A stretch of 20,342 bases of DNA from Candidatus Eiseniibacteriota bacterium (GCA_031370645.1 JANMQV010000187.1:1-20342); one strand, 5' to 3'. Positions 4,900-20,342 are shown, numbered from the stretch's first letter. Notes: generated from the sequence alone by a model not told the origin. A program made the numbers and translations.

Positions 4900-5434
4900 G
4901 TATCGGCCCACGGGAACGTTGATCGCGGCAGTGCCGGGGTCGAAGAGTGATCGCCAAACCGGCGGCCCGAATCGTGGGGCTTTCCACCATCTGGTCGACG
5001 TATTCGCGATCATGTCGTATTGTCGCGGATGTCCTTTTAGTGTCGGAGTTCCGATACGAACTGGACTGAGTATCAGCCCTGAGACTTACTGCAGGTACCC
5101 TTCGATGTGAATCTTGCCCGTCGCGAAATTGGCACCCCTTCCTTGGAGTGGCTCTCGTCCCGCCGATCCCACTTCTCCCCCGCGGATCGCTGGAACGAAT
5201 CGCTGACCGAGACCCCTGGCTACGCGGTAAGTAGCTGTGAATGGGGAGGTTGGGCTGGAGCGCCGGATGCACCATTGCCCACTGCATCTGCCGGCGCGAC
5301 CATCGTCAATGTCGGAGCCGGCGCGGCCGATAAGGACTTATGGGCTGGGCAGATATCGAACCACCCTCGCGCCCCTGAGCGACGCCCGAAGAGTGACCAA
5401 CAATACCCCGCCACGGAGGCATCCTAGAGCGAGC

Positions 5435-7387
5435 ATGGACGAGAACCCCGAGCGAATCTCCGTCATCGTCGTCGAGTCCCACGACCTCATCGCCAAGCTG
5501 GTTGCTCGTCGCATCGCCGAGATCATTCGCGACCAGCGCGCGGCGGGGCGAATGGCGGTGCTTGGTCTCGCCACCGGCTCAACGCCGATCGGCGTCTATC
5601 GCGAGCTGATCCGGATGCACCGCGAGGAAGGACTCGATTGGTCGAACGTCAAGACGTTCAACCTCGACGAATACTTCCCCATGCCGTCCGACAGCGTCCA
5701 TAGCTACCACCGGTTCATGCGGGAGAATCTCTTCGACCACGTGAACATCGATCCGCGAAACGTTCACATTCCGCGCGGGGACCTTCCTCGCGAGGCGATC
5801 CACGCGCACTGCGCCGATTATGAACAGGCCATCGCGGTCGCGGGTGGAATCGACTTCCAGATTCTGGGAGTCGGGCAGACGGGGCACATCGGCTTCAACG
5901 AACCCGGTTCGAGCACCGCGTCGCGCACCCGCCTCATCGCCCTGGACACGATTACCCGCCGCACCGCCGCCTCCGACTTCTTCGGCGCCGAGAACGTCCC
6001 TGCTGAGGCGATCACCATGGGCGTCGCGACCATCCTCGAAGCACGGGAGATCGCGCTCATCGCAACGGGCGAGCACAAGGCCGCCATCGTGAAGCGATCC
6101 GTCGAAGGCGACATCGATCGGTCCGTGACCGCGACCTACCTTCAGCAGCACCCGAACGCGACGGTCTATCTCGACAACGCCGCGGCGGCGAAACTGACCC
6201 GCGTGAGGACCCCGTGGCTCCTCCGCGAGATCGAGTGGACTCCGCGCCTTGCGATCGAAGCCGTCGTCTGGCTTTCCGAGATCACGGGCAAATCGGTCCT
6301 CAAGCTGGCCGACGTCGACTATCGCGAACACCACCTCGGGGCGCTTCTCGGGCGCCACGGTTCCTCCGCAGCGCTCAACGGCGTCGTTTTCAACGCGCTG
6401 GGAGCCAAGATCCGCGGGCGAAGCGGACTCCCCCGGGGCCGGCGCATCCTTGTGTTCTCTCCCCATCCGGACGACGACGTGATCTCGGCGGGAGGAACGC
6501 TCCACAAACTTCGCCAGAATGAGAACGATCTGCTCGTGGCGTACATGACGTCGGGCAACATCGCCGTGTTCGATCACGAAGTTCGGCGCTATCTCGACTT
6601 CATTCGCCGGACAGCGGGAGACTTCGAATACGGAACCGAACGACTGCAATCGCTGCTGGCGGATGTGGAAGAGTCCCTCCGGCGGAAACAGCCGGGTCAG
6701 TTGGACTCCGACGCAGTGCTGATGCTGAAGCGCCGGCTCCGGGAAGTCGAGGCGGTCTCCGCCGTCGAGACGCTCCGCTTGAGCCCGGAACAGACTCGAT
6801 TCCTGAATCTTCCCTTCTACCAAACCGGAACGGTGAGGAAGGATCCGATCGGCGAGCGAGACGTCGAGATCATCCTCGCGTTGCTGGAAGAGCGTCGTCC
6901 CGAAATCATTCTCGTCGCCGGTGACCTCTCCGATCCGCACGGGACGCACCGCATGTGCAAGGAAGCGATCGAGCGGGCGCTTGAGCGATACTCGGGAGAG
7001 CCGCCCGAGATCTGGCTCTATCGCGGAGCCTGGGAGGAGTGGTCCATCGCCGAGGCCGACATCCTCGTGCCAATGTCGGAAGAAGAACTGCGACTCAAGA
7101 TCAACGCCATCTTCAAGCATCAGAGCCAGAAAGACCGCGCGCCCTTCCCCGGGGTCGACGAGCGTGAGTTCTGGCAGCGCGTCGAGGAGCGAAACAAGGG
7201 AACGGCACGGCTGGTCGATGGGCTGGGGCTCTCGGAGTACTACGCGATGGAAGCCTTGGTGGTGCAGGGTGCGGTCTCTACCCCCCAAAACGAGCCAACC
7301 GGCGGGCATACTCACGTCGAGCCTGCCCACCGGCTGAGCGTTGGGCGTCGTTATGGCGTGTTCAAGTCGAAACTGAACACTGCCTGA
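5435..7387 (+). CDS. nagB: Glucosamine-6-phosphate deaminase fused to a PIG-L/LmbE deacetylase-like domain (long-form NagB)
   Basis: LGLATGSTP, FNLDEY, GHIGFNEPGS, AITMGVATI in the N-half; SPHPDDDVIS, DPHGTH and IFKHQSQKD in the C-half. Start placed at ATG 5435 (MDENPERI). Confidence 0.95.
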   Translation: MDENPERISVIVVESHDLIAKLVARRIAEIIRDQRAAGRMAVLGLATGSTPIGVYRELIRMHREEGLDWSNVKTFNLDEYFPMPSDSVHSYHRFMRENLFDHVNIDPRNVHIPRGDLPREAIHAHCADYEQAIAVAGGIDFQILGVGQTGHIGFNEPGSSTASRTRLIALDTITRRTAASDFFGAENVPAEAITMGVATILEAREIALIATGEHKAAIVKRSVEGDIDRSVTATYLQQHPNATVYLDNAAAAKLTRVRTPWLLREIEWTPRLAIEAVVWLSEITGKSVLKLADVDYREHHLGALLGRHGSSAALNGVVFNALGAKIRGRSGLPRGRRILVFSPHPDDDVISAGGTLHKLRQNENDLLVAYMTSGNIAVFDHEVRRYLDFIRRTAGDFEYGTERLQSLLADVEESLRRKQPGQLDSDAVLMLKRRLREVEAVSAVETLRLSPEQTRFLNLPFYQTGTVRKDPIGERDVEIILALLEERRPEIILVAGDLSDPHGTHRMCKEAIERALERYSGEPPEIWLYRGAWEEWSIAEADILVPMSEEELRLKINAIFKHQSQKDRAPFPGVDEREFWQRVEERNKGTARLVDGLGLSEYYAMEALVVQGAVSTPQNEPTGGHTHVEPAHRLSVGRRYGVFKSKLNTA

Positions 7388-8372: not shown

Positions 8373-9422
8373 CTACGGAATCGGCATCACGACGGCATTG
8401 CTGGCGAGTGCCACCGCGCCGATCCGTGCCAGCGCCCTACCATTTAACGCCGCTCCCGTATTCAAGGTGATCGACTGATTCGCCATGATGGTGCCCTTGA
8501 ACGTGGACGTCGTTCCCAGCGTGGCGGAAGTTCCCACCTGCCAGAAGACGTTCGCCGATTTCGCGCCACCGCTCAGGATCACGAGCCGGCCGGAAGTGGT
8601 GGTGAGCGTCGAAGCGATCTGGAAAATAAAGACGGCATTCGCGTCGCCTTGAGCGTCGAGCGTGAGATCACCCGATGAGATCGCAAGCGATGAGGTGGAC
8701 TTATAGAGGCCCGGCGGAAGCGTCAGTCCGCCGAGATTCCCGGCGACCGTGACGGGCGACAGCGTCCTCCCCGCGGCGTCGTTATAGGCCGTTGTGAGAT
8801 CGGTCATGGCCGTGGAGGATGTGACGTCGGCGGCGTGAATCGAACCGCTCAACGTACCGGGCGGGAAGCCCGTCACCGCGGATCCCGGGCTCACGCCCAG
8901 ATCACCGCCCAGTGACGTCGGGCCAAGATTCGTGACGGTCGAGCCTCCCAGAACAACGAAAGCGCCCGCGCCGCCAAGGGCAACCGACGCCTGACTGCTC
9001 GATGCGCCCGAGGTCGTGAAGACCCAGATATAGCTGGTCGCCAGCGCGTTCGCGGAGGCATCCTTCGCCCCGGTCGTGATCGTCGCCGTATACGTCGTGC
9101 TAGGCGTGAGCGCGCTCGTCGGCGTGAAGACCGCGACGCCGGTCGACACGCTGTAAGCGGCCGTGCCCGCAACGGGGGTCGAGCCGGGTCCAGTCAGCGT
9201 GAAGGTGCTCGCCGTGATCGTCGAGGGATCCATGGCCTCGCTGAAGGACGCCGTGATGATGGCTACTCCCGTAGCCCCATTGGCGGGGTTGGTGGAACTT
9301 ACGGTCGGCGCGACCGTGTCCGCGCCGGGGCCGGTGGGGTTGTCCGAGTCACTGCATCCGGCCGTGGCGACAAGAAAAGCCGCCAACGCCAGTCCCGCAA
9401 GGCTGCTTGTACGAAGCTTCAT
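8373..9422 (-). CDS. Ice-binding-family (DUF3494) lipoprotein with N-terminal bacterial Ig-like (Big_5) domain
   Basis: Lipobox ATAG-C; DTVAPTVSSTNPANGATGV...FSEAMD Big_5 pattern; GDLGVSPGSAVTGFPPG, LPPGLY, LTLDAQGDANAVFIFQI, NVFWQVGTSATLGT, GRALA. Start at ATG 9422 after AAGGAA. Confidence 0.94.
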   Translation of the reverse strand: MKLRTSSLAGLALAAFLVATAGCSDSDNPTGPGADTVAPTVSSTNPANGATGVAIITASFSEAMDPSTITASTFTLTGPGSTPVAGTAAYSVSTGVAVFTPTSALTPSTTYTATITTGAKDASANALATSYIWVFTTSGASSSQASVALGGAGAFVVLGGSTVTNLGPTSLGGDLGVSPGSAVTGFPPGTLSGSIHAADVTSSTAMTDLTTAYNDAAGRTLSPVTVAGNLGGLTLPPGLYKSTSSLAISSGDLTLDAQGDANAVFIFQIASTLTTTSGRLVILSGGAKSANVFWQVGTSATLGTTSTFKGTIMANQSITLNTGAALNGRALARIGAVALASNAVVMPIP

Positions 9423-9465
9423 GAGAAGTTCCTTCCGTTTGAGTGGGTGTCGCGCTCTGAGGTAC

Positions 9466-9482
9466 GGCAGGAACGGTGCCAA
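9466..9482 (-). promoter_or_regulatory. Sigma54 (-24/-12) promoter of the DUF3494 gene
   Basis: Minus strand TTGGCACCGTTCCTGCC = GG-N10-GC, about 44 nt upstream of the start codon. Confidence 0.7.
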
Positions 9483-9600
9483 GCTACCGAGAAGTCGCAC
9501 ATCGCGCGGTAAGGCGTTGGAGGGGCGCTCGCAAGCGCCGCTTTGCGCACCCATCCGTCGCCGGCGATCGTGGTGGGCCGCCCGACAGCGAAGGTAGCCC

Positions 9601-9626: not shown

Positions 9627-9700
9627 CGTAGAGACGAAGGCGGGCGCCTGGCTGCTGCGCCCGCCTCGTTGGTACCGCGGCAGTTCGGAGGTTGCCAAAC

Positions 9701-10450
9701 TTAGTTGCCGCCGCGGCCACCCCGCCCGTTATTGCCTTTGCCATTCCCGCGGCCATTGCCGTTGCCATCGCCGTTGCCGGGGGAGTTGTTGTTCCGGTTT
9801 CCCCACGCGGGAGGATAGTTGCGCCATTGCTCGCGCGGAACTCTGGAGAATTCGCTCGGGACCGCGCTCGCTTCGATCACATTGAATCGACCGCTTTCGC
9901 GCGAGGACGAGTACCACCGGTCGCCGCTGTAGGCGTAATAATTTCCGCCGTAGCGGAACACGTCGTAGTTGGGTCGCGCGTCTCCATACACCATCGAGAC
10001 GTTCGTCCCGTTGATGCTCGACCAGCGGGGCGCGCTCCCGAAGTTGACTTGGAGGTACAGGCCCGAACCGTTCGAACCTCCCGGGCGGGAATCTTCCCAC
10101 GCGGTCGGATAATTCCGCCAATGGTCGCGCGGAATCCGGCGCAACTCTCTCGGGACCGAGCGAGTGTCGATCATGGTGAACCGACCGCGACCGCGCCGGG
10201 AGATGTACCACCGGGTGTTCCTGTAGTTGTAGGCGTAATACCGGCGACCGTACTGGAACACGTCATAGTCGCTGCGATCTTGCCGACGAATTTCCCGAAC
10301 CTGGGTGCCGGGGACGCCGACCCAGTGCGGGGTGCTTCCGAAGTTGATTTGAAGCGACACGTCCGTCGCCGCACGGGCCGTGGCGGCGGCGCCGCATCCC
10401 ATGCTCAGGGCGAGTAGCGGAACCAACAGCATCTTGGAACGAAGAATCAT
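9701..10450 (-). CDS. Exported hypothetical protein with two ~85-aa aromatic/Arg-rich repeats and a Gly/Asn tail
   Basis: AAGGA RBS, signal peptide, repeated LQ(I/V)NFGS.P.W...YDVF.YG..YYAY...WRNYP.AW, tail GNGDGNGNGRGNGKG. Confidence 0.88.
   Translation of the reverse strand: MILRSKMLLVPLLALSMGCGAAATARAATDVSLQINFGSTPHWVGVPGTQVREIRRQDRSDYDVFQYGRRYYAYNYRNTRWYISRRGRGRFTMIDTRSVPRELRRIPRDHWRNYPTAWEDSRPGGSNGSGLYLQVNFGSAPRWSSINGTNVSMVYGDARPNYDVFRYGGNYYAYSGDRWYSSSRESGRFNVIEASAVPSEFSRVPREQWRNYPPAWGNRNNNSPGNGDGNGNGRGNGKGNNGRGGRGGN
9803..10354 (-). repeat. Intragenic tandem domain duplication
   Basis: Unit 1 at 10097-10354 (86 aa) and unit 2 at 9803-10054 (84 aa); starts are 300 nt apart. Confidence 0.9.
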
Positions 10451-10526
10451 CGATTCATCCTTTCCTGCGCATCGCCTCTACCGATGCGATGGTCGCTTTG
10501 TGAGTGTTCTCGACGGGGGGGATTAG

Positions 10527-10542
10527 GGCACGAACGATGCCA
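10527..10542 (-). promoter_or_regulatory. Sigma54 promoter of the repeat protein gene
   Basis: Minus strand TGGCATCGTTCGTGCC = GG-N10-GC. Confidence 0.65.
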
Positions 10543-10661
10543 CCGGAGGGGGGAAATACGCGGCTCCGCGTATCGTCTTATGGGTGGGCCCTCTACCCCG
10601 CTTCCGGGCCGTCTAGAGCGGGGGTCGGGAGGGAGGCACCACGCCACAACGAAGGAAGCCG

Positions 10662-10687
10662 TTTCAATCTCACAGCGGTTTCTTCAA
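10662..10687 (-). promoter_or_regulatory. Candidate enhancer (UAS)
   Basis: TTGAAG-N14-TTGAAA, again 120 nt from the TGG of the sigma54 site. Confidence 0.5.
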
Positions 10688-10727
10688 TCCCCTAACGCGG
10701 CCGTGCAGGGCGAATCAGCGGTTCCGG

Positions 10728-12803
10728 CTAACGAACCTCCCAGCCGACCGAGAACGCCGACGCCCCGTCGGTGAATCCGTGCGCGGCATCGATTCGAAAT
10801 GCTCCGCGTCCGCCCGGCGCGGCGAGCCGGATGCCGGCGCCGCCGTCGAACTGCCACGGTTCCCGCTCCGTTCGCCACGGATCCAACGGCTTCGCCCCGT
10901 CGACAAAGACGCTCCATCCGAAGCGTATCGACTTCACGGTGCCGATCCTGTCTTGCCGCTCGAGTCCGGTGTGAACGAGCGTTCGTCCGAAGGCTCGTCC
11001 CGCCACGACGCCGTCGTCCAGCAGCGGATGGGCGCGTAGAAGCGGTTCACGGCCGCGGCCGGTTCCCGCTCCGGGCCAAAGCGCCAACGGGGCGGCGGCG
11101 GTAGCCGTTAAGACCCCGAGCCGGGCCAGCCATCGGCCATCAGCGCGGAATTCCGAACTCCATCGGGCGAGGAGGCCCGCCGCTTCGAACGGGACCGATC
11201 CGTCGAGGCTGGTCCACTGCGCCACTTCCGCGTTCAGCGCGAGCCGATCGTGCGCAAGTCGGGATTCAAGTTTGCCTTCGATTGATAGGTGAGCGCCACG
11301 CGCGGTCCATTTGTCCAACCCCGCTCCGAACTCGAGACGAAGATTCGGAGCGACCCAATCCGCGAAGGTGAGCACGGTGCGGCGGCGTTCCTCGCGCGTC
11401 ACCACGGCGCGAAGCACGCCGTCGGGACCGAGCGACTCCGAACCGGCGTAGGCCTGTCGCTCCCAGAGGCCTTCCACACGCCAGAGCCCGGGACGCCCAC
11501 CCGGAGCCGGGACTGCCAACGTCAACGAAGCGCTCGGGCGCTCCCGCTGCCAGCGATAGCCGGCCGTCCAGAGCTCTCCGTTCCCCGTAGGGCTGGCGAC
11601 GCGGAGCGAGACCTCCCGCTCGGCGAAGGCTCGGAGCCCCGCGGCCCCTGCATCGAGTGGTCCCGAGAAGAGAAGCGGGCGCTCCAGCACCGCGACGTTC
11701 ACCTGGGCACTTCCCTGCGGCAACGGCGTCAGGCTGAGTCGCGACTGCGAGTGGGCGGGCAACTCTGCTAGACGCCGTCGGGCGCGGAGGTAAGCCCCGG
11801 AGGTGAGCAGGCGTCCCGGCTGCAATCCGAGTTGTCCGGAGACCGCGCGGTAACGAGTGCGAGCCAATCCGTCGATCCGCGGCAGATCGGCGCGCGGTTC
11901 GGAAACCCGGTTCCATGCTCGGAGCGCGCCGTCCTCGTCGCCGAGAAGAAACCGGCTTCCCGCGAGGAGGCGCCACGTATATCGGTCATCCGGATCGAGG
12001 TCCAGCGCCTGTTGGGCGAATCGTGCGGCTCCGAGCCAATCCTCCGCCTTGAAACGCAAACCCGCGAGCCCCCGCAGGGGCGCGGCCGATTCCGGGCAGA
12101 GTGCCATGGCCGAACGCAGTCGATCCTCCGCCCCCGTCGTGTCGCCGTTCCTCGCTCGGACGATCGCGTCTTCCACGATCGCGTCGCAGCCGGTTTGCGG
12201 CACCGGAGGGGAAACGGCCATGGGCGCGGAGCCGTCGTCGGCGGGCCCGAATTTTCCCTCCGCCGGGAGAATCACAACAGCCCAGTACGCGCCTCCGCGC
12301 CAGGCCTCATTGAAGGCTTTTTCGCTACGTGTTCGAAACGGCGCGACGGCGGGGTCATGGAGGATCACGCCACCGTTCGCCCACGCCACGACTACCACAT
12401 AGTGATACAGGCCGGGACCTACCTGAATCAGGGCGATGACGGGTCGCCCCTTGTCGAGCTGTTCTCGAACATCGGACGGCGTGCCGGGGATCGACACCGC
12501 ACTCCAGCCGCGCGAACGCACCGCTCGAACCATCGCGTCGGTGCGGATGCCCGCCTCCCCGTTCTCGATCAGGGGCAGGAACTCCTCGGCCAAGACGGCG
12601 GGCTCGCCCCAGTAGCGGAATACCATGGCGATGGCCGCCCCACCGCAGAGAGCGGCCGTCTGAGGCACGTAGGGGACATCGAGCAGGCGTACCCGGTCCG
12701 TGGGTCGTCGCGCGGCCGACGGCGTTTCCGCGGCCGCCGATTGAAACAGAAGGGCGGCCAGCGTCAACCAGACGCTGACCGCCAGTCCTGCTCGCAGAAA
12801 CAC
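10728..12803 (-). CDS. C39-like cysteine peptidase (PA2778-like) fused to TPR, POTRA-like and Omp85-like beta-barrel regions
   Basis: Signal peptide; LDVPYVPQTAALCGGAA (Cys), GRPVIALI, YHYVVVV (His), HDP (Asp); TPR helices (ALDLDPDD); POTRA-like IDGLARTR...GRLL...RRRLAELP...VAVLER; barrel end GGAGIRL...FRIDAAHG...FSVGW. GTG start 7 nt after the upstream stop. Confidence 0.82.
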   Translation of the reverse strand: MFLRAGLAVSVWLTLAALLFQSAAAETPSAARRPTDRVRLLDVPYVPQTAALCGGAAIAMVFRYWGEPAVLAEEFLPLIENGEAGIRTDAMVRAVRSRGWSAVSIPGTPSDVREQLDKGRPVIALIQVGPGLYHYVVVVAWANGGVILHDPAVAPFRTRSEKAFNEAWRGGAYWAVVILPAEGKFGPADDGSAPMAVSPPVPQTGCDAIVEDAIVRARNGDTTGAEDRLRSAMALCPESAAPLRGLAGLRFKAEDWLGAARFAQQALDLDPDDRYTWRLLAGSRFLLGDEDGALRAWNRVSEPRADLPRIDGLARTRYRAVSGQLGLQPGRLLTSGAYLRARRRLAELPAHSQSRLSLTPLPQGSAQVNVAVLERPLLFSGPLDAGAAGLRAFAEREVSLRVASPTGNGELWTAGYRWQRERPSASLTLAVPAPGGRPGLWRVEGLWERQAYAGSESLGPDGVLRAVVTREERRRTVLTFADWVAPNLRLEFGAGLDKWTARGAHLSIEGKLESRLAHDRLALNAEVAQWTSLDGSVPFEAAGLLARWSSEFRADGRWLARLGVLTATAAAPLALWPGAGTGRGREPLLRAHPLLDDGVVAGRAFGRTLVHTGLERQDRIGTVKSIRFGWSVFVDGAKPLDPWRTEREPWQFDGGAGIRLAAPGGRGAFRIDAAHGFTDGASAFSVGWEVR

Positions 12804-13345: not shown

Positions 13346-14950
13346 CTACTCCCCTTTCTTTAGCAGCCTCCGGCGCTCGCGTTCCTTCGTCAGTTCCTCG
13401 GTATTCAGCACCTTGAACTCCACGCGACGATTCTTCGCCATGCCTTCGATCGTCTTGTTGGACGCCACCGGCAGGCTCTCGCCGTAGCCCTTCGCGACGT
13501 ACTGCTCGCGGGCGATCTGCGGGAACTTCTGCACGAGGTAATCCAGGACCGACTGCGAACGCTTCTGCGAGAGGTCCAGGTTGTAGGCATCCGCGCCGCG
13601 CGCGTCGCAATGTCCGCCGACTTCGATCCGAAGACGCGGCCACTGGATCAAGATCGTGCCGATACCGTCGAGGACCGGCTGCGACTCCGGCAGAATGTCC
13701 CACTTCGCGGTTTCGAAGTGGATCTCGCGAGTCGTGATCGTTCCCTTGTCCAGCAGTTCGCGCTCGCGATCGGTGAGCGTGATCGGGCAGCCGTCCGAGT
13801 CGACTTTGACGTCCGCCTGCGTATTCGGGCAGAGATCCTTGTCGTCCGTGACGCCGTCCTGATCCGAGTCGGTGGCGCAGCCGCGCGTGTCGACCTGGGT
13901 TCCTGCCGGGGTGTTCGGGCATTGATCGAGTCCATCGGGAACGCCGTCGTGGTCGGAGTCGACCGGGCATCCGGTCTCATCCACCTTGGTTCCCGGCGGG
14001 GTGCCGGCGCATCGATCGGCGGCGTCCAAAACGCCGTCACCGTCGGAGTCGGCGGCGCAACCGCGCGCGTCGACCGCCGTGCCGGCGGGCGTGTTCGCGC
14101 ACTGATCCACTCCGTCCGGAACACCGTCGCCGTCCGCGTCGCTGGGGCAGCCACGTACGTCGACCGTGGCGCCTGCCGGCGTATTCGGGCACTGGTCGAT
14201 GCCGTCAGGCACGTGATCGCCGTCCGCATCCAGCGGACAGCCGGAAGCGTCGACAAGCGCTCCGCGAGGCGTGTCAGCGCAGGTGTCGTCCTTGTCCTTC
14301 ACACCGTCCTTGTCGGAGTCCCCGTTATGTCCGGATCCGCCGAGCGTGATCTGAATGCCGGCGCTGTAGAAAAGGTTGTGCACGCTCTTGTCGCCCGGGG
14401 GATCCGGCGCGGGAGGTGAATCGAACTTCCAGATCTTGTCGCGAATCTCGAGCCGAAGGGCCGTCTTCCGGCCGAAGCCGAGCTTCACGCCGCCGCCGAA
14501 CTCCAGACCGTTCTGGAACGTCTGAGAGCTCGAGACATCCGATTTGATCTTCTCTTCGTGCCATCCGCCGAGCACGTACGGGTTGAACGCGATCGAGGGG
14601 AAGAGATTCAACGTGAGGTCGGCACCGTAGGCTTGAATGCTTTGGTCCGTCGGCGGCGTCAGGCTCGCAGCAGTAAAGAGCGAGTCGCCCGTGCCGTATT
14701 CCGTGTGTGTCTTCATCCAGCCGTAGTAGCCCTCGACGCCGAGATGCCGTCCGAAGCCGAGACCGACGCGGCCGCCGAACATCGGCTTGTCATCGAGGTT
14801 CACGTCCTTCGCCCACATTCCATAACCGGCGAATGGCGTGAGATTCAAATGCAAACCACCCGGCTCGCTCCTGGCGACTCCGGATGCTAGCGGCCCCTGG
14901 AGCAGAAACACCGCCAATACCACCAACCACTTTCGCAGCGAATTCATCAT
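13346..14950 (-). CDS. OmpA/OprF-family protein: N-terminal beta-barrel, thrombospondin type-3 repeats, C-terminal peptidoglycan-binding OmpA domain
   Basis: Signal peptide, barrel strands, DxDxDGVxDxxDxCxxTP repeats, IHFETAK, IEVGGHCDARG, YNLDLSQKRS, KGYGES, NRRVEF. Confidence 0.95.
   Translation of the reverse strand: MMNSLRKWLVVLAVFLLQGPLASGVARSEPGGLHLNLTPFAGYGMWAKDVNLDDKPMFGGRVGLGFGRHLGVEGYYGWMKTHTEYGTGDSLFTAASLTPPTDQSIQAYGADLTLNLFPSIAFNPYVLGGWHEEKIKSDVSSSQTFQNGLEFGGGVKLGFGRKTALRLEIRDKIWKFDSPPAPDPPGDKSVHNLFYSAGIQITLGGSGHNGDSDKDGVKDKDDTCADTPRGALVDASGCPLDADGDHVPDGIDQCPNTPAGATVDVRGCPSDADGDGVPDGVDQCANTPAGTAVDARGCAADSDGDGVLDAADRCAGTPPGTKVDETGCPVDSDHDGVPDGLDQCPNTPAGTQVDTRGCATDSDQDGVTDDKDLCPNTQADVKVDSDGCPITLTDRERELLDKGTITTREIHFETAKWDILPESQPVLDGIGTILIQWPRLRIEVGGHCDARGADAYNLDLSQKRSQSVLDYLVQKFPQIAREQYVAKGYGESLPVASNKTIEGMAKNRRVEFKVLNTEELTKERERRRLLKKGE
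13784..14323 (-). repeat. Six 90-nt (30-aa) TSP3 calcium-binding repeats
   Basis: Six consecutive units of consensus xDxDxDGVxDxxDxCxxTPxGxxVDxxGC(P/A), 540 nt in total. Confidence 0.93.
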
Positions 14951-15205: not shown

Positions 15206-16612
15206 TCAGGCCGTTCCGGAGAGACGCTTGAACAATCGGCCGATGGCGACCGCCAGGACGAGCCAGACAACGATGAGTCCGACATTCACCAGCGCGAACT
15301 CTCGCGGGGCGAAGCCAAGCCACGTCGTACCGGCAAAGACGAGCCCGGCCGACAGGACGTCGCCGAAGCGAACGAAGAAGGTATCGTTCGCTTGCTTGGC
15401 CTTGTACTTCGCCTCTCGGCTCGTCGGGAGGTAGAGCGCATTTCGCGTGGTGTTCTGGAGCGAGTAGTCGAGAGAGTTCTCCGCCAGTTTCGCGCCGCGA
15501 ATGAAGGAGAGCAGCGGAACGAACGCCATCGACGTATATCCGATCAAGGCGACCGCGGGCAGGACCAGAAGCGCCACCCTCACCCCGAAGTACTTGATGA
15601 CGCGGGAGACGACAAACGCCTGAATCAGGGCCGAGATGACGTTCACCATCGTCTGGAAGTTTCCGTAGAACTCCCCGATCACTTTCTTCGCGTCGAGACC
15701 GGCGACCGCCGCGGCGCCGTGCGCGGCCGTATACGCCGCCAGCACCATCTTGCCCAAAATGTATTCCCCGTTGGTATTCACGAAATTGTAGAGAAGCATC
15801 AGGATGCCGATGAGGAGGAGATAGCGATCGCGAAAGACGAGGGCGAATCCACTTCGTCCGCGCACGGGTTCGTCCGCGCCGCCGGCGGGAGCGTCAGCGG
15901 CGCTTGCGTCCGTCGGCACCTCGGGCTGCGGCAACTTCCCCCCGCGGGCACGTTTCTCGCGAAGGTTGATCACGTTCGTGAGCACCATGCAGAAGGCCAA
16001 GAGCACGCACGCGCCGAGCATGAAGGGATAGGGCCCGTAGAGGGAAACCAGTTGCCCGGTGGAGAACGAGCCTGCGATGGCGCCCAAGGACGCGCCGAAC
16101 CCCACGATCGCGAATAGCCGCTTCCCCTGCTCCACGGTGTAGACGTCGTTCGCGAAGGCCCAAAGTTGCGCGATCACCATCAGGTTGAAGATCCCGACCC
16201 AGATGAAAAACGCGACACCGACCGGCACGCCGGCCTGGCTGAGCACGAAGAAAGCGACCAGACACGCGGCGAAGAAGAGAGTGACCCCGTTGATGAGTTT
16301 CACACGCGAGACGCGAGAAGCGAGGGCGCTGTAGAGCGGAACCAGAATGATGAAGAGCCCGGCGATGGCGGCGGCCGCGTAGCTCTTCACCTCCGCACCG
16401 CCCGGCACGGTCAAGATCAGCGGCTCGCGGATCGTCTTGAGCATCGAATACGCGGCCAAGAGGAAAAAGATGTTCAGCATCAGGAGGATCGCGGTGAGCC
16501 CCTCTCCGCCGCGCACCTCCGTGAAGACACCAAGGGCTCGATCGAGCAGCCCCTTGACGGCGGAATCCGGCTTGGCCCGGTCGCTCCCGGCAGTCGCTTC
16601 AGTGCTGGCCAT
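15206..16612 (-). CDS. Npt1/Npt2 (TLC/AAA family) nucleotide translocase, MFS fold
   Basis: GGAGG RBS, about 12 hydrophobic segments, YSMLKTIRE, FFIWVGIFNLMVIAQLWAFANDVY, QGKRLF, ENSLDYS, LYLPTSREAKYKAK..DTFFVRFGD. Confidence 0.88.
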   Translation of the reverse strand: MASTEATAGSDRAKPDSAVKGLLDRALGVFTEVRGGEGLTAILLMLNIFFLLAAYSMLKTIREPLILTVPGGAEVKSYAAAAIAGLFIILVPLYSALASRVSRVKLINGVTLFFAACLVAFFVLSQAGVPVGVAFFIWVGIFNLMVIAQLWAFANDVYTVEQGKRLFAIVGFGASLGAIAGSFSTGQLVSLYGPYPFMLGACVLLAFCMVLTNVINLREKRARGGKLPQPEVPTDASAADAPAGGADEPVRGRSGFALVFRDRYLLLIGILMLLYNFVNTNGEYILGKMVLAAYTAAHGAAAVAGLDAKKVIGEFYGNFQTMVNVISALIQAFVVSRVIKYFGVRVALLVLPAVALIGYTSMAFVPLLSFIRGAKLAENSLDYSLQNTTRNALYLPTSREAKYKAKQANDTFFVRFGDVLSAGLVFAGTTWLGFAPREFALVNVGLIVVWLVLAVAIGRLFKRLSGTA

Positions 16613-16665
16613 GGTGGTTCCTCCAGGGTCGGGTCAGGAGACGCTCGAGCGGCATGTGGGGTGGC

Positions 16666-18318
16666 TCACTGCATCCCCGCCGGCGTCGCGGGCGGTGGAG
16701 GCTTGACCCTCACGGGGACCGCCACACTCGTGCGTTTCGGTTTCGGCTTGCTGATCACGCGGGGAGTTGGTTTCGAGAGGAGCCGCGCGCTCACCGCGGT
16801 CGAATCGACCGAAGCGCCGGCGTGCCTCGCCGGCATGCTGGCGACCACCTTCGGGGTTTCCTTGGGGCCCGTGGAGGGCGGAACGACCACCTTATGTTGA
16901 TCGACCTTCGGAATGCCGTATCGATCGAGGTCGACCTTCACCTCGTCAATCTTTGTCGCGGCCGAATTCGCGTCGACCGCATAGGTAATGAGGTCGCCTC
17001 CACCGAACCAGAGACGAAGGTGGGTGAAATTGAACACTTGGCTCGTGAAGACGTTCTCCGGCTTGATGACGCCACCGCCCACCTTGTACTCGCTGAAGAG
17101 TCGTGCGCCTTCGTCGGGCGACGGAATTTGGTGGAGCGGAGATCCGGCCCCACCCGAAACGAGCACGATGAGGACGGCATCGGGCCAGGTCAGGAGGGCG
17201 CGCTCGTAGGAGTGCTCGTGCCCCGCAATGATGGCGCCGATTCCGGCCTCATGCAGCGTCTGCACCAAGCGTTCCCTCCGTTGCACGAGGACAGAGTCGC
17301 TTTGCCACTCCTGTCGGTGGTCGCCGGAGGAGAGGGGCGGATGATGCATCAGCACGAGCACCGGCCCTTGGTGTTCCTTCACGCGCGCCACCAACCACGT
17401 GAGTTGCTCCTCCGAGTAGGCGATCTGGGCTTCGCGCGTCCAGTGGCTTCCGGCATTCACGATCGGATTCGAGTCGAGGGCGATGAACCGCACCCACCCG
17501 TCCGCCGAATCGAAGCAGTAGTAAAGTCGGTCGCCTCCAACGGGGAGCCCGGTCGCCATCCGCCAGTTCTCGACCCCGTTTTCGGTATCGGTCCGCTCGT
17601 GGTTCCCCGCGATCGGAAAGTACGGCACCTTCGAGGTGAGCGGTTCGGTGATTCGCAAAAAGCGCTCCCAGTGCGCCGGGTACTGCCCGTCTTTCACCAG
17701 ATCGCCGGTGTTGATCACCGCGGCCACGGTTTGCCCGTGGGAGCGCAACGAATCGATCTTCGCCAGCATCGCGGTCATCACCTGGTGTTCGCGGGACCAT
17801 TTTGGCATGCGTGTGATGACGGCGGGGAATTCCCGGATGAGCGCAAGATCCGGATAGAGCCCCTTAGCGATGGCGTAAGGGATATTGACCAGGCCGCGAA
17901 CGATGCGGAACGGATTGAGCGAGAGACCTTGCCGAATCGCCAATAATTGCGGCGTCAGGCGTTTGAGGCGGAAGCCGGGACGATTGTCGCCGCAGAGGAA
18001 GATGTGCAGCGTGTCCACCGTGTAGCCGTCGCGAAGTCTCCCCAGAAAACGGATGGTGGAGTCCGCTGTCCCCGGCGCCAGCCCTATCAGCGTGTCGCCG
18101 AACAAGGGCCGCAACGGGGCCCGGACCTCGCGCTTCGCTTCCTCGTCCTGGGCGGTACTGTCGGCCACAACCGGAGACACGGTGTGTCCCACGTTTTGCA
18201 AGCGCCCGATGTGGGCGCAACCGGTCAGAAAGATCGCCCCTGCTGTTGCTGCCCAGAGGAAACTCCGCCCCGGCGGCCGTGGGGAGGCCGCTCCGGAACG
18301 ACGCGTCGGTGATGTCAT
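16666..18318 (-). CDS. Calcineurin-like metallophosphoesterase (purple-acid-phosphatase-like), predicted lipoprotein
   Basis: Lipobox FLTG-C; metal motifs CGDNR, TGDLV, GNHE, MHHP, GHEHSYER; Pro/Lys-rich C-terminal tail. Confidence 0.9.
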   Translation of the reverse strand: MTSPTRRSGAASPRPPGRSFLWAATAGAIFLTGCAHIGRLQNVGHTVSPVVADSTAQDEEAKREVRAPLRPLFGDTLIGLAPGTADSTIRFLGRLRDGYTVDTLHIFLCGDNRPGFRLKRLTPQLLAIRQGLSLNPFRIVRGLVNIPYAIAKGLYPDLALIREFPAVITRMPKWSREHQVMTAMLAKIDSLRSHGQTVAAVINTGDLVKDGQYPAHWERFLRITEPLTSKVPYFPIAGNHERTDTENGVENWRMATGLPVGGDRLYYCFDSADGWVRFIALDSNPIVNAGSHWTREAQIAYSEEQLTWLVARVKEHQGPVLVLMHHPPLSSGDHRQEWQSDSVLVQRRERLVQTLHEAGIGAIIAGHEHSYERALLTWPDAVLIVLVSGGAGSPLHQIPSPDEGARLFSEYKVGGGVIKPENVFTSQVFNFTHLRLWFGGGDLITYAVDANSAATKIDEVKVDLDRYGIPKVDQHKVVVPPSTGPKETPKVVASMPARHAGASVDSTAVSARLLSKPTPRVISKPKPKRTSVAVPVRVKPPPPATPAGMQ

Positions 18319-20030
18319 CCGTGGCGCACTCGCGTGACGCTCCAGACATTGTCCTTTCGGGTCAACTCGACATGGGCCGGTTTCGCCTGGTTCCCCACGA
18401 TCGAGATATCGAGAGAGAGGCGCGAAACGCCGGTTTCAAAGCGGAGTAGCGAGAACTCCGAAGTCTTCAGCTCGACGTGCTTGTCTCCTCGATCGCCTCC
18501 GTGCGCCGACACGACCTCGACGTCATATGAGCGAGCGCCGGCGAGCCGGGTGTCGACGGCAAGGTCACGAAATCGCAGGACGCCGTCTTCGACCACGAAG
18601 AAGTCCAACGGTGCTACCCGGCCGAACCAGTGCCGCGCGATCTTGTCGCGGCGAACGATGAGATTCAACTCCATGAACTCGCGGGCTCGCGGATCCTCAT
18701 AGCCGGCGGCCTCCACGGCCGCCGCGATCTGCTCGTTCGAGAAAGAGGCTACGATCTTCGCGCCCCAGTAGCCATCCCGATCGGTCATCTCGCGAAACGC
18801 GGGCTGCGGCATCTCCTGCTTGAAGTCTTGGGACCGGAAGACGACCGACTCATAATTGCCCACGGAGGGGATGCCCGTCTCCTGGCGTGCCCGCCTCCAC
18901 GGCTCTTGGACGAAGCCGAGCGTGACCAGGCGGCGCCCGGTCCACGCGAGATCGAAGGCGTTCTCGTATCCTGCCGGAAGGTGCTTGGGTCCGCGAGCGG
19001 CCGCCCCGAAAGACGATCCGACATCGAGAAGGTAGTGCTCGACGTGTCCGAGGCTGTCGCGAGTCTCGACGAACATATCCAGAAATTGGTGATCCTTCGT
19101 GTCCCAGTCGTTGATCCACGCGCATAGCGCATAGAGGCCCCGGAGTTCGCGGCGGTTCCCGTGCGAATACCAGTCGTTCGAATCGCCGGGGCGTAGCCGT
19201 CGCATGCTCGGCGCTCCCAAGGCCTTTCCCTTAAGGAACAAACTAGCGGATGCCGAATAGCTCCCATCGGGGAACACCGCGCCGTTCACGAGCACCGAAT
19301 CCAACTCGGCCTCGGTGAATTGCTCGCCCTTGGTGCCTCGGAGCAGATCCGGATCGATCGTGAGGTCGGCACGCTGGAATCGGACGGGAGTATTGTGCGG
19401 TACGTTGTACCCTGCGGCGTGGATCAAGGTGCGCGCCACCACGTCGGCGCCCGAGCCGAGCTGAGGATAGCCTCTCGGGTCCAGCTTCACCAACCACTTG
19501 TTTCCGGCCGCGTCCTTGATTTGGAATCCCGCGCTCCATCCGCCCTGTTTCGCGTGTTTGATCGTCCAGGGCTTCGCGGGCACGAAGACCGAATCCGGAC
19601 CCAGGCGCAGTTCGGCCACCGGCACGGCGCGCCAGTGATTACGGTTCGTAAACCACGAGGAGTTAGGCACCTCGTCGAACGCGTTGACGTTCACTGCCTC
19701 GCGCCGCGTGTTGGCGCCGAGGCGCCGCGCCACCCAGAGCAGTTTGTCGGGAATGTCGAACAGATGAGAGATCGGCGCGAAGAGACCCTGGTGGGCCTGC
19801 AGCCCCCAGTAATTGGGTTCCCAATTCCGCGGCTTCTGAATCGGCTCCCGATCGTGGTCGACCCACGTGCTATCGGCGATATCCTGGGAATCGTCCGCGT
19901 CCTTCGACTCGACTCGGCCCGGGCCGCGGTCATCGGCGGGAGCGCCATAGCCGGGGCCGACTCCACACAACAACGACGCGCCCAGCAGGCCGAGCATCCA
20001 CGCGCGAAGAGACTGAGGTCCACGTCGCAT
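18315..20030 (-). CDS. Exported hypothetical protein with predicted HipA/PI3K-like atypical kinase fold
   Basis: Signal peptide; KQGGWSAGF (Gly loop), WLVKLDP (beta3 Lys), ADVVARTLIHAAGYNVP (alphaC), DWDTKDHQ (catalytic loop), YLLDVGSSFG (DxG). The CDS is secure; the kinase call is inference. Confidence 0.72.
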   Translation of the reverse strand: MRRGPQSLRAWMLGLLGASLLCGVGPGYGAPADDRGPGRVESKDADDSQDIADSTWVDHDREPIQKPRNWEPNYWGLQAHQGLFAPISHLFDIPDKLLWVARRLGANTRREAVNVNAFDEVPNSSWFTNRNHWRAVPVAELRLGPDSVFVPAKPWTIKHAKQGGWSAGFQIKDAAGNKWLVKLDPRGYPQLGSGADVVARTLIHAAGYNVPHNTPVRFQRADLTIDPDLLRGTKGEQFTEAELDSVLVNGAVFPDGSYSASASLFLKGKALGAPSMRRLRPGDSNDWYSHGNRRELRGLYALCAWINDWDTKDHQFLDMFVETRDSLGHVEHYLLDVGSSFGAAARGPKHLPAGYENAFDLAWTGRRLVTLGFVQEPWRRARQETGIPSVGNYESVVFRSQDFKQEMPQPAFREMTDRDGYWGAKIVASFSNEQIAAAVEAAGYEDPRAREFMELNLIVRRDKIARHWFGRVAPLDFFVVEDGVLRFRDLAVDTRLAGARSYDVEVVSAHGGDRGDKHVELKTSEFSLLRFETGVSRLSLDISIVGNQAKPAHVELTRKDNVWSVTRVRHG

Positions 20031-20342
20031 TAGAAGGTACTCCCTAGATCGAGGGCCACGCGGAGGCCCTCGTCACTCTTGGCGATTTCAAGGCGAACCG
20101 CGGCCAGCTCGCTCCGCCCCAGACGGAGGCCGCCGCCGACCGATCGATGCGCGTCACGCAGGGTGAACGCGTCGGAGCGAGACGCGACCGCCCCGAGTTC
20201 GAACAGCGCGATCGCGCTCATCTCGTGAACGATCATCCACCGGTACTCCACCCGGCCGAGCAGGAGCTGCCGATCACGAAATCGGTTGGGGGCGTAGCCC
20301 GCAAAGTTCGTGACGCCGTCGCTCCGAATAAGACGATAGAAC
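20030..20342 (-). CDS. C-terminal part of an Omp85 (BamA/TamA-family) outer-membrane protein; 5' end outside the window
   Basis: Open frame from the window edge: FYRLIRSDGVTNFAGYAPNRFRDRQLLLGRVEYRW...FELGAV...HRSVGGGLRL...VRLEIAKSDEG...LGSTF*, ending in Phe. Confidence 0.8.
   Translation of the reverse strand, partial: FYRLIRSDGVTNFAGYAPNRFRDRQLLLGRVEYRWMIVHEMSAIALFELGAVASRSDAFTLRDAHRSVGGGLRLGRSELAAVRLEIAKSDEGLRVALDLGSTF

Follow-up and report, generated by a model that had tools for sequence, protein, structure and literature searches.

In the textbook view, the bacterial periplasm is free of ATP, and the processes of the cell envelope are thought to draw their energy from the inner membrane. 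Lipids are phosphorylated and dephosphorylated in this compartment by PAP2 enzymes such as LpxT, LpxE/F and PgpB, and the periplasmic phosphotransfer known to us uses undecaprenyl pyrophosphate as the donor, not ATP, and is not performed by a kinase-fold enzyme. In the eukaryotic secretory pathway, lumenal ATP for the Fam20 kinases is provided by a dedicated ATP/ADP exchanger, and in bacteria, CtkA of Helicobacter pylori is a secreted kinase. Genes for NTT and NTT-HEAT proteins occur in free-living bacteria as well, where their function was left open (Major et al., 2017, PMC5381601); as far as passages of its main text go, that work does not link NTTs to an exported kinase.

Here, we analyzed a stretch of 20,342 nucleotides from a Candidatus Eiseniibacteriota bacterium (GCA_031370645.1, JANMQV010000187.1:1-20342; hereafter the window), in which four genes follow each other in the order Omp85 barrel, exported kinase-fold protein, lipoprotein metallophosphoesterase and TLC/NTT carrier. 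We found no description of a system with this composition in the literature, and we propose, with slightly less than even confidence, that the four genes constitute a new module for phosphorylation in the cell envelope, to which the carrier probably supplies ATP. The initial annotation had described four co-oriented genes joined by a TAATG overlap, an ATGA overlap and a 53-nt gap with GGAGG, and ORF reading and direct inspection recovered all of them, on the minus strand, exactly where it had placed them (Table 1); the GGAGG sits 7 nt ahead of the carrier ATG. The Omp85 barrel gene named there is incomplete, since the window is a whole contig and its end leaves only a 103-codon tail. Over 141 nt, the end of the contig matches the start of contig C78 exactly, and the barrel gene appears to continue on the latter. 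The inverted repeat past the carrier gene is a possible operon end; it is without a T-run and absent from the output of the terminator scan, which gave 4 sites in the region in total versus 3.7 expected.

Table 1. Features of the four-gene locus in gene order, with positions counted from the first nucleotide of the window
Feature	Position	Strand	Basis
Omp85-type barrel fragment, C-terminal 103 codons	20033..20342 (ORF 20033-20341, open at contig end)	-	NCBIfam match below cut-off
Barrel/kinase TAATG stop/start overlap (TAA/ATG)	20028..20032	-	Read directly
Predicted exported atypical kinase-fold protein, 571 aa	18315..20030	-	AlphaFold2 model, fold searches, conserved residues
Kinase/phosphoesterase ATGA start/stop overlap (ATG/TGA)	18315..18318	-	Read directly
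Lipoprotein calcineurin-like metallophosphoesterase, 550 aa	16666..18318	-	Pfam PF00149, lipobox, motifs
53-nt gap with GGAGG 5' of the carrier gene	16613..16665; GGAGG 16620-16624	-	Read directly
TLC/NTT-family (MFS-fold) inner-membrane carrier, 468 aa	15206..16612	-	Pfam TLC and MFS_1
GC-rich 10-bp inverted repeat, 70 nt past the carrier stop codon	15108..15136	-	Read directly

The 571-aa protein is a predicted exported kinase that represents an undescribed family. A signal peptide (residues ~1-30) and a disordered linker to ~50 lead into a conserved N-terminal segment, after which come the kinase-like domain (~140-472) and the FN3-like domain (~472-561). It matched no Pfam or NCBIfam family and, profile search included, no PDB sequence, and therefore would be a kinase by fold that stands outside the described families. 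Its AlphaFold2 model (pLDDT 90.7, pTM 0.89) adopts a two-lobed atypical kinase fold of the protein-kinase-like superfamily, nearest to CtkA, Fam20, PI4KIIα, CotH and HipA. The best 14 rows of the VIA-align comparison are all atypical kinases (Z 9.4-14.1, 212-257 residues aligned, span ~140-476), with CtkA ranking first (3akj, Z 14.1, 223 residues, rmsd 4.0), followed by Fam20 (12.8), PI4KIIα and CotH (both 12.0) and HipT (10.9), and FN3 domains reach Z ~8 on residues 472-561. Foldseek gave 7 matches at E<=0.001, which are Fam20C (2e-4), PI4KIIα and CtkA, with probabilities of 0.99-1.00. Motif columns were assigned by following their succession along the predicted secondary structure and by standard motif definitions; we take K182, D310 and D336 to be the ATP-site Lys, the catalytic-loop Asp and the metal-binding Asp of a DFG-like motif, and these are kept in 83, 82 and 81 of the 84 aligned relatives, respectively, the last being followed by F or V and then G. 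Additionally, G164 and G168 are conserved at 90% or more, and an acidic residue occupies position 196 in 77/84. The kinase fold claimed in the initial annotation, which sequence profiles could not reveal, is thus upheld by the model, the fold searches and the conserved catalytic residues; that annotation had named a missing kinase fold or a cytoplasmic location as grounds for refutation, and the protein has the fold and carries a signal peptide.

The family to which this protein belongs comprises 2452 representative clusters at E<=0.001, and all listed members begin with a hydrophobic signal-like N-terminus, many of them with a Cys lipobox. One relative (P0244) is a kinase-PAP2 fusion; another (P0270) carries a fused GT4 glycosyltransferase, a normally cytoplasmic enzyme, which counts against the module. 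A relation to CtkA and HipA is also indicated by weak matches of the Pfam models HipA_2 and HipA_C in 13/84 and 12/84 relatives, whereas the window protein itself matched no HipA model in the Pfam search, adds an N-terminal domain, the FN3-like domain and a signal peptide, and has neither an antitoxin neighbour nor a PADLOC model match. With Fam20C and its kin it shares an atypical kinase fold placed outside the cytosol (Fam20 structures, Z 12.7-12.8, 257 residues aligned) and the same logic of an exported kinase paired with a nucleotide carrier. However, no sequence similarity to them is detectable (the Pfam Fam20C model is unmatched), the module belongs to a bacterial envelope, its carrier is of the TLC/NTT and not the SLC35 type, and the Omp85-type barrel has no Fam20 counterpart.

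A kinase-like fold could serve other chemistry, and the same parts might perform AMPylation or glutamylation or form a pseudokinase scaffold on the barrel, or else the carrier might move a cargo other than ATP, for example a different nucleotide, a cofactor or some compound linked to a lipid; we consider this somewhat unlikely. Consistent with it, SidJ and lipid kinases are found among the fold matches beside protein kinases, and the catalytic-loop Asn (HxDxxxxN), present in 74/84 relatives, is replaced by Gln in the window protein and 8 others and by Asp in 1, a substitution in the window's clade that counts against the module. Yet most relatives keep the full phosphotransfer residue set, and the recurrence of two unrelated phosphatase families as partners fits a phosphomonoester product.

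As for the cargo, the 468-aa protein matches Pfam TLC (PF03219, TC 2.A.12, 5e-14, 52.4 bits vs a cut-off of 21), covering only residues 144-370, and the solved ADP,ATP carrier protein 1 (9j3n) at 3.9e-13 over residues 134-463, and its relatives of 74-89% identity bear the source names 'AAA family ATP:ADP antiporter' and 'Npt1/Npt2 family nucleotide transporter'. From this distant TLC family membership, the carrier would export ATP in exchange for ADP. A different cargo is favoured by its 54.6 bits against NCBIfam TIGR00769 (NTP/NDP exchange transporter), far under the cut-off of 387.2, and by the match to the generic Pfam MFS_1 (7.7e-12); the sub-cut-off score, the partial TLC span and an identity of ~23% to a TLC-HEAT paralog of the same genome all count against an ATP carrier. 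Therefore, although related by TLC membership and by homology to the solved carrier, it is very distant from the NTT/Npt1 carriers of Chlamydia, Rickettsia and plastids, and the direction proposed for it is export, in a free-living organism that makes its own ATP: the genome gave matches to ATP synthase and purH, and so the host is not an energy parasite. Also in keeping with a different cargo, NTT relatives carry NAD, SAM and other nucleotides (Major et al., 2017, PMC5381601). The window genome also has an NTT-HEAT gene followed by a cNMP-binding gene, an arrangement known from the same study (Major, Embley and Williams, 2017, PMC5381601).

The 550-aa protein has a lipobox (FLTGC), a C-terminal tail rich in Pro and Lys, and a match to Pfam Metallophos (PF00149, 9.6e-13, 49.4 bits vs 21.5). 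Its translation contains GD, GDLVKDG (GDxxxD), GNHE, H and GHEH (GHxH), which we take to be the metal-binding motifs of calcineurin-like metallophosphoesterases. Patterns of the GNH[ED], GHxH and GD[LIVM] type match 16 of 17 phosphoesterase relatives, the exception being a fragment at a contig end, and lipoboxes of the LLAGC, LLGGC, VLAGC or LAAGC type were seen in 7/17 by a crude pattern with ORFs read stop to stop. In other phyla, the exported phosphatase is of another type, and loci from Nitrospira and Zixibacteria have PAP2 genes immediately 5' of the barrel and kinase genes, which resembles LpxT, LpxE/F and PgpB; unlike those systems, the module has an ATP-type kinase and a nucleotide-carrier homolog. 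This position of PAP2 and the single PAP2-kinase fusion point to a lipid-phosphate product. The 'eraser' role given to the phosphoesterase in the initial annotation therefore gains support from an unrelated exported PAP2 enzyme that adjoins the kinase in other phyla and is once fused to it, but the phosphoesterase is an accessory part of the module, not its core.

The solved proteins that best match the phosphoesterase work on nucleotides and phosphodiesters; they are a diphosphonucleotide phosphatase (3zk4, 2.8e-5), GpdQ and purple acid phosphatases. This speaks for nucleotide or phosphate scavenging, wherein the barrel would admit extracellular nucleotides or organophosphates, the phosphoesterase or PAP2 enzyme would trim them, the TLC carrier would import nucleotides, as do some Npt/NTT carriers, and the kinase-fold protein would bind or process nucleotides instead of marking a target in the envelope. 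The characterised NTTs are importers (Major et al., 2017, PMC5381601), and in the window genome a PiT phosphate transporter gene and a DUF47/PhoU-like gene, which also fit this reading, lie between the TLC-HEAT/cNMP-binding pair and the barrel gene, with the block linked in three further loci (L034, L035 and L064) in differing arrangements. However, only 3 of the 34 loci compared within the window's phylum and 0 of the best-scoring 79 of 574 cross-phylum loci carry PiT and DUF47, the invariant core is barrel plus kinase rather than a hydrolase, the genome encodes its own ATP synthase and enzymes of purine synthesis, and scavenging leaves the conservation of the ATP-site Lys, the catalytic Asp and the DFG Asp unexplained in an ATP-free compartment. 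We regard scavenging as unlikely and prefer envelope phosphorylation.

The barrel would be an Omp85-type outer-membrane protein devoid of POTRA domains, to judge from family models. The fragment in the window matches NCBIfam Omp85_fam (NF047779) at 2.2e-8, below cut-off; the full-length ortholog L034:9757-11073 matches it at 2e-14, likewise below cut-off, and scores 23.0 bits against Pfam Omp85 (cut-off 24), and the Nitrospira moscoviensis homolog matches it at 4.8e-25, below the curated cut-off, and, also below cut-off, TIGR03303 over its BamA barrel positions 405-709 (1.4e-21). No POTRA model matched the two full-length orthologs at E<=1, and in the N. moscoviensis homolog the barrel-homologous part starts at about residue 128 of 458, with only ~100-130 residues ahead. 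As in two-partner secretion (TpsB/TpsA) and in BamA and TamA, an Omp85-type barrel gene stands directly ahead of an exported protein's gene and is translationally coupled to it: in L034 the barrel stop codon ends, by coordinates, on the first base of the kinase ATG, and the two genes overlap or lie <=20 nt apart in 19 of the 23 adjacent pairs listed, with starts set at the first Met. Nevertheless, the module barrel differs from TpsB, BamA and TamA in lacking POTRA in its full-length orthologs, and no TPS or haemagglutination domain was matched by Pfam in the 571-aa kinase.

The gene order was compared over 34 loci of the window's phylum and over a cross-phylum set, which is the best-scoring 79 of 574 loci and not random, with sampled kin that are not independent, and includes Zixibacteria, Ignavibacteria, Calditrichia, KSB1, Latescibacterota, Acidobacteriota, Nitrospira, Gemmatimonadota and Rhodothermales. 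Within the phylum, the barrel is directly upstream of the kinase in 32/33 loci, a co-oriented TLC gene lies <=3 kb from the kinase in 23/32, and the phosphoesterase is present in 13/32, a minority that counts against the module. Among the best 79 of 574 loci, the barrel precedes the kinase in 70/75, and TLC is co-oriented within 3 kb in 27/59 and within 6 kb on either strand in 24/38; ORF clustering of the same set found the barrel in 73, TLC in 49, PAP2 in 15 and the metallophosphoesterase in 13, with at least one of the two phosphatases in 25. The core is a barrel and a translationally coupled exported kinase, repeatedly joined by a TLC carrier and an exported phosphatase, and the TLC link is frequent, not constant. 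All 5 examined genomes without TLC in the locus carry it elsewhere, in 3 of them ~8.4-10 kb from the kinase. Among 101 genomes of the window's phylum, 45 (including the unpublished G015) have both kinase and carrier, 6 the kinase only, 3 the carrier only and 47 neither, and 4 of the 6 kinase genomes without a close carrier have only weak kinase matches; in a Nitrospirota sample, TLC without the kinase occurs in 3/61 genomes, 2 of them marginal.

These counts bear on whether the genes share a function at all. That they are chance neighbours, or merely part of a general envelope-related regulon, could be argued from the accessory genes, which differ between loci, and from kinase copies that stand alone, such as that in L039 without barrel or TLC; the copy on contig C137 also has no barrel gene upstream on that 4.3-kb contig. 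We disfavour this as highly improbable in view of the barrel-kinase order and start/stop overlaps over many phyla, the phyletic table of kinase and carrier, and the proximity of TLC, a family with matches in 0/14 control genomes. Accordingly, the earlier expectation that the gene families co-occur in other genomes held, and extended to other phyla. The earlier interpretation as a whole is partly supported, with co-occurrence and the kinase fold confirmed and the eraser idea strengthened.

Based on these findings, we infer a role for the carrier in ATP export, a substrate for the kinase and a role for the barrel. First, the carrier would move ATP out to the periplasm in exchange for ADP, the direction following from the cell's own production of ATP. 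Subsequently, the kinase would transfer phosphate from periplasmic ATP to an envelope substrate, for which a lipid or glycolipid is our first guess, because PAP2 enzymes are partners of the kinase and in one case fused to it, and because lipid kinases are among the fold matches, and a protein our second; the phosphatase would take the mark off again. The barrel may hold the kinase at the outer membrane, pass it to the surface or present the substrate. In its widest form, the proposal is that free-living bacteria of several phyla (Eisenbacteria-like, Zixibacteria, Calditrichia, Latescibacterota, Acidobacteriota, Nitrospira, Gemmatimonadota and others) use ATP to phosphorylate a lipid, glycan or protein of the envelope, either in the periplasm or at the outer membrane, with an NTT-type carrier passing ATP out and ADP in, an exported kinase docked to or passed through the POTRA-less barrel, and an exported phosphatase as eraser. 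We hold this to be possible but doubtful.

The conserved cluster points to a supply of ATP to the cell envelope in some free-living bacteria, and the widespread pairing of an exported kinase with an ATP/ADP exchanger homolog is a testable candidate for a regulated ATP supply there. If true, it would overturn the rule that no ATP-driven chemistry takes place in the periplasm and would account for NTT homologs in free-living bacteria. The analysis also defines a large, unnamed kinase-fold family and may assign a role to a POTRA-less Omp85 class. The module offers a possible function for the free-living NTT genes, a question left open by the earlier study (Major et al., 2017, PMC5381601). Additionally, the window genome has a second barrel-kinase pair, which adjoins a TLC-HEAT gene on contig C221, and the module is carried by Nitrospira moscoviensis (locus L102), a named strain with a complete genome.

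The four genes that head this analysis lie in a row at one end of the window, which is a complete contig (C48), and their junctions were confirmed as first annotated, namely a TAATG overlap at 20028-20032, an ATGA overlap at 18315-18318 and a 53-nt gap with a GGAGG motif at 16620-16624. A GC-rich 10-bp inverted repeat occurs 3′ of the carrier gene, the last of the cluster, while a terminator and promoter scan of the region gave a site count not above chance. Comparison with related loci establishes that the Omp85-type barrel and the exported kinase-fold protein are the core pair, that its link to TLC/NTT carriers is strong though not constant, that one or the other of two unrelated exported phosphatases is a recurrent partner, and that sigma-54 regulators are frequent neighbours.

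Coordinates of the cluster genes, of further copies and of other genes mentioned in the text
Feature	Contig or locus	Position	Strand	Remark
Barrel gene, 3′ part (last 103 codons)	window	20033-20341	minus	first in transcription order; ORF truncated at contig end
Kinase ORF, 571 aa	window	18315-20030	minus	second
Phosphoesterase ORF, 550 aa	window	16666-18318	minus	third
Carrier ORF, 468 aa	window	15206-16612	minus	fourth
Outer-membrane protein, 534 aa	window	13346-14950	minus	
C39-like peptidase/TPR protein, 691 aa	window	10728-12803	minus	
Ice-binding-like protein, 393 aa	window	8373-9554	minus	
Isomerase-like/deacetylase fusion, 716 aa	window	5237-7387	plus	
PiT phosphate transporter	C78	1476-2474	as barrel, upstream	PHO4 3.2e-95
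DUF47/PhoU-like gene	C78	2470-3120	as barrel, upstream	6.3e-25
cNMP-binding protein	C78	3158-3760	as barrel, upstream	9.8e-15
TLC-HEAT protein, 922 aa	C78	3757-6522	as barrel, upstream	
Sigma-54 response regulator, then histidine kinase	C78	7032-8678 (regulator)	plus, opposite to barrel	
Second barrel-kinase pair and convergent TLC-HEAT gene	C221 (L147, 18000-32701)	26356-32143		
Third kinase copy	C137 (L002)	1318-2895	plus	
Second metallophosphoesterase	C210	27262-28854	plus	
Barrel gene with in-frame stop	L073	6659-7975	plus	
Short TLC gene	L049 (G054)	9633-11038	plus	

The 571-aa protein found no match in Pfam, NCBIfam or the PDB sequences, the last searched with both the single protein and a profile; it has 2452 relatives at E ≤ 0.001 in a search of 1.84 billion representatives, and every named one among 120 close relatives is called a 'hypothetical protein'. 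An AlphaFold2 model built from an 84-sequence alignment (A1) reached a mean pLDDT of 90.7 and a pTM of 0.89, and Foldseek gave seven matches to it at E ≤ 0.001, all of them to the Golgi casein kinase Fam20C, to PI4KIIα or to H. pylori CtkA. When the model was compared with 48,161 chains by VIA-align, the top fourteen matches were atypical kinases, with CtkA the best (Z 14.1, rmsd 4.0, 223 residues aligned) and Fam20 (Z 12.8 and 12.7), PI4KIIα (12.0), CotH (12.0), actin-fragmin kinase (11.5), HipT (10.9), HipA (10.8) and the lipid kinase MavQ (10.6) among the others, and next in the ranking came FN3 domains, for residues 472-561 (Z ~8). Within A1, K182 is conserved in 83/84 members, D310 in 82/84 and D336, followed by F/V-G, in 81/84, position 196 is acidic in 77/84, and at position 315 the catalytic-loop Asn is present in 74/84, the window kinase and eight others carrying Gln; 13 of the 84 weakly matched Pfam HipA_2 (best 7.4e-5). 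Every N-terminus inspected among the relatives is signal-peptide-like, many with a Cys lipobox, and the clade of the window kinase has a cleavage-type end (…GYG/APADD). Taken together, the N-termini, the fold model and the A1 conservation indicate a protein that is predicted to be extracytoplasmic and to adopt a kinase fold, both as proposed in the initial annotation, with the presumptive phosphotransfer residues K/D/D retained. The kinase is outside every described family.

The kinase was found in 51 of the 101 genomes sampled from the window's phylum, and 34 of the 71 listed kinase places were analysed, leaving out the unpublished genome G015, fragmentary matches and further copies. Of the 33 such loci whose flank was long enough, 32 have the barrel gene immediately upstream in the same orientation; a TLC gene follows co-oriented within 3 kb in 23/32 and is present within 6 kb irrespective of strand in 22/25, and the phosphoesterase gene follows within 1.5 kb in 13/32. 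The co-conservation of the four genes, for which a neighbourhood search had been suggested, is borne out by the recurrence of the window's complete order in ten loci (L034-L038, L041-L043, L046 and L048). A search with a 12-sequence alignment (A2) yielded 574 stretches encoding kinase relatives in species-representative genomes, and the best 79 of these, analysed here, come from Zixibacteria, Ignavibacteria, Calditrichia, KSB1, Latescibacterota, Krumholzibacteriia, Acidobacteriota, Nitrospira (including N. moscoviensis NSP M-1), Gemmatimonadota, Rhodothermales, Balneolaceae, Marinimicrobia, Poribacteria and others. In these cross-phylum loci the barrel is directly upstream of the kinase in 70/75, and 19 of the 23 adjacent pairs listed overlap or are at most 20 nt apart when starts are taken as the first Met; a TLC gene in the same orientation lies no more than 3 kb away in 27/59, one in either orientation no more than 6 kb away in 24/38, and a phosphoesterase gene is co-oriented within 1.5 kb in 8/59. 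Clustering of all ORFs in the best 79 of 574 (L067-L145) placed the kinase family in 79/79 loci, the barrel in 73, the TLC family in 49, an NtrC-type sigma-54 response regulator in 29, PAP2 phosphatase in 15 and metallophosphoesterase in 13, either phosphatase occurring in 25 and both in 3. Chance adjacency of the cluster genes is for practical purposes excluded. A Nitrospirota-wide sample was uninformative as a replicate, with the kinase in 1/61 genomes, the one on which the sample was centred, and TLC in 4/61.

The window's barrel fragment matched NCBIfam Omp85_fam at 2.2e-8, and its full-length orthologs are ~430-470 aa long, two of which gave no match to POTRA models at E ≤ 1; the ortholog in L034 scored 2e-14 with Omp85_fam and 23.0 bits with Pfam Omp85 (cut-off 24), and the Nitrospira moscoviensis homolog matched positions 405-709 of the BamA model (1.4e-21). 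With the reservation that all scores fall under the curated cut-offs, the barrel appears to be of Omp85 type without POTRA domains. On one Zixibacteria chromosome (L073) the barrel gene contains an in-frame stop, and in G054 a short TLC gene after the kinase was matched as three separate pieces; both may be decayed copies.

The carrier matched Pfam TLC over residues 144-370 (5e-14; 52.4 bits, cut-off 21), as well as MFS_1 and the solved ADP,ATP carrier protein 1 (9j3n, 3.9e-13); with the NCBIfam NTP/NDP exchanger model it scored 54.6 bits, below the cut-off of 387, and its close relatives, 74-89% identical, bear automatic source names of ATP:ADP antiporters or Npt1/Npt2 transporters. The TLC family was found in 0/14 well-known control genomes. 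In the 101-genome sample a close-type carrier (E ≤ 1e-40) occurs in 48, such that 45 genomes (including G015) have both kinase and carrier, 6 the kinase only, 3 the carrier only and 47 neither, which is a pattern and not a statistic, because kin are not independent; the kinase match is weak in four of the kinase-only genomes, and two of the carrier-only genomes are ~85% complete. For the cross-phylum set, a search of five genomes lacking TLC in the retrieved locus found it in all five, and in three of them it lies at a distance of ~8.4-10 kb from the kinase.

The 550-aa ORF encodes a calcineurin-like metallophosphoesterase (Pfam 9.6e-13) with a lipobox (FLTGC) and intact metal-binding motifs; among solved structures it is closest to a diphosphonucleotide phosphatase, GpdQ and purple acid phosphatases. 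Loci of Nitrospira and Zixibacteria show the order PAP2, barrel, kinase, and one kinase relative (P0244, 782 aa) is itself a fusion with PAP2 phosphatase as the C-terminal domain.

The window's final 141 nt (20202-20342) are identical to those at the start of contig C78, into which the barrel gene appears to carry on (L146, 1-6522, minus strand); this join is based on the overlap and on synteny in relatives, with these blocks also linked, though differently arranged, in L034, L035 and L064. On C78 the cNMP-binding gene comes after the TLC-HEAT gene, an arrangement described by Major et al. 2017 (PMC5381601). The regulator adjoining the cluster on C78, together with the frequency of such regulators across phyla, hints at sigma-54 control. 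The PiT and DUF47 genes were rejected as core parts. A pathway scavenging nucleotides and phosphate would fit these two neighbours in the window's genome and also the hydrolase, but they accompany the kinase only in few close relatives (3/34 phylum and 0/79 cross-phylum loci), and the conserved kinase site would be left unexplained, so that we regard scavenging as quite unlikely.

Based on these findings, we propose that the genes encode an extracytoplasmic phosphorylation module. First, the kinase would need ATP in a compartment where ATP is not expected, and TLC/NTT carriers are a family known for ATP/ADP exchange; since the host genome has matches to its own ATP and purine synthesis genes, the carrier as an exchanger would run outward. 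Second, the use of either of two phosphatases points to a phosphomonoester product, which would be written by the kinase and erased by the phosphatase, and from the PAP2 partners and the lipid-kinase fold matches we would guess first at a lipid or glycolipid as substrate. The role of the barrel may be anchoring, export or presentation. The module finds its nearest analogue in the eukaryotic secretory pathway, whose lumenal kinases rely on imported ATP.

Several points count against this reading: the carrier is distant from characterised carriers, the window kinase has Gln in place of the catalytic-loop Asn, some copies of the kinase are isolated and some carriers occur without the kinase. In addition, a relative fused to an N-terminal GT4 glycosyltransferase (P0270, 955 aa) does not fit an extracytoplasmic location, barring a gene-calling artefact. 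Two longer fused forms of the kinase, P0391 and P0392, are without a Pfam family and did not match the barrel profile. Other chemistry or cargo is in our estimate somewhat unlikely; the kinase-fold protein might, for example, catalyse AMPylation or act as a pseudokinase scaffold, or the carrier might move another nucleotide or a lipid-linked compound.

The components come from known superfamilies, but the family of the kinase has no name. Literature searches for a periplasmic or extracytoplasmic kinase with an ATP supply returned nothing relevant, and those for a system of Omp85, kinase-like protein and translocase returned no description of such a composition; the available portion of Major et al. 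2017 (PMC5381601) makes no mention of a carrier link to an exported kinase. PADLOC defence models matched none of the four cluster proteins.

The window's genome holds further copies. The kinase of a second barrel-kinase pair (C221) is 38% identical to that of the window, and the pair is convergent with a 797-aa TLC-HEAT gene, an arrangement that recurs with an intervening short TLC gene in the relatives L051, L055, L056, L133 and L142. A third kinase copy (66% identity) lies on a 4.3-kb contig whose 1.3 kb upstream of the kinase contains no barrel gene, and a second metallophosphoesterase (54% identity) has the lipobox LLAGC.

Elsewhere in the window, the next gene downstream of the carrier, 255 nt away, encodes an outer-membrane protein that begins with a beta-barrel, contains thrombospondin type 3 repeats and ends in an OmpA domain. 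Other genes encode a protein with a C39-like peptidase domain and TPR repeats, one with bacterial Ig-like and ice-binding-like domains (PF11999, 7.7e-65), and a fusion of glucosamine-6-phosphate isomerase-like and PIG-L deacetylase domains.
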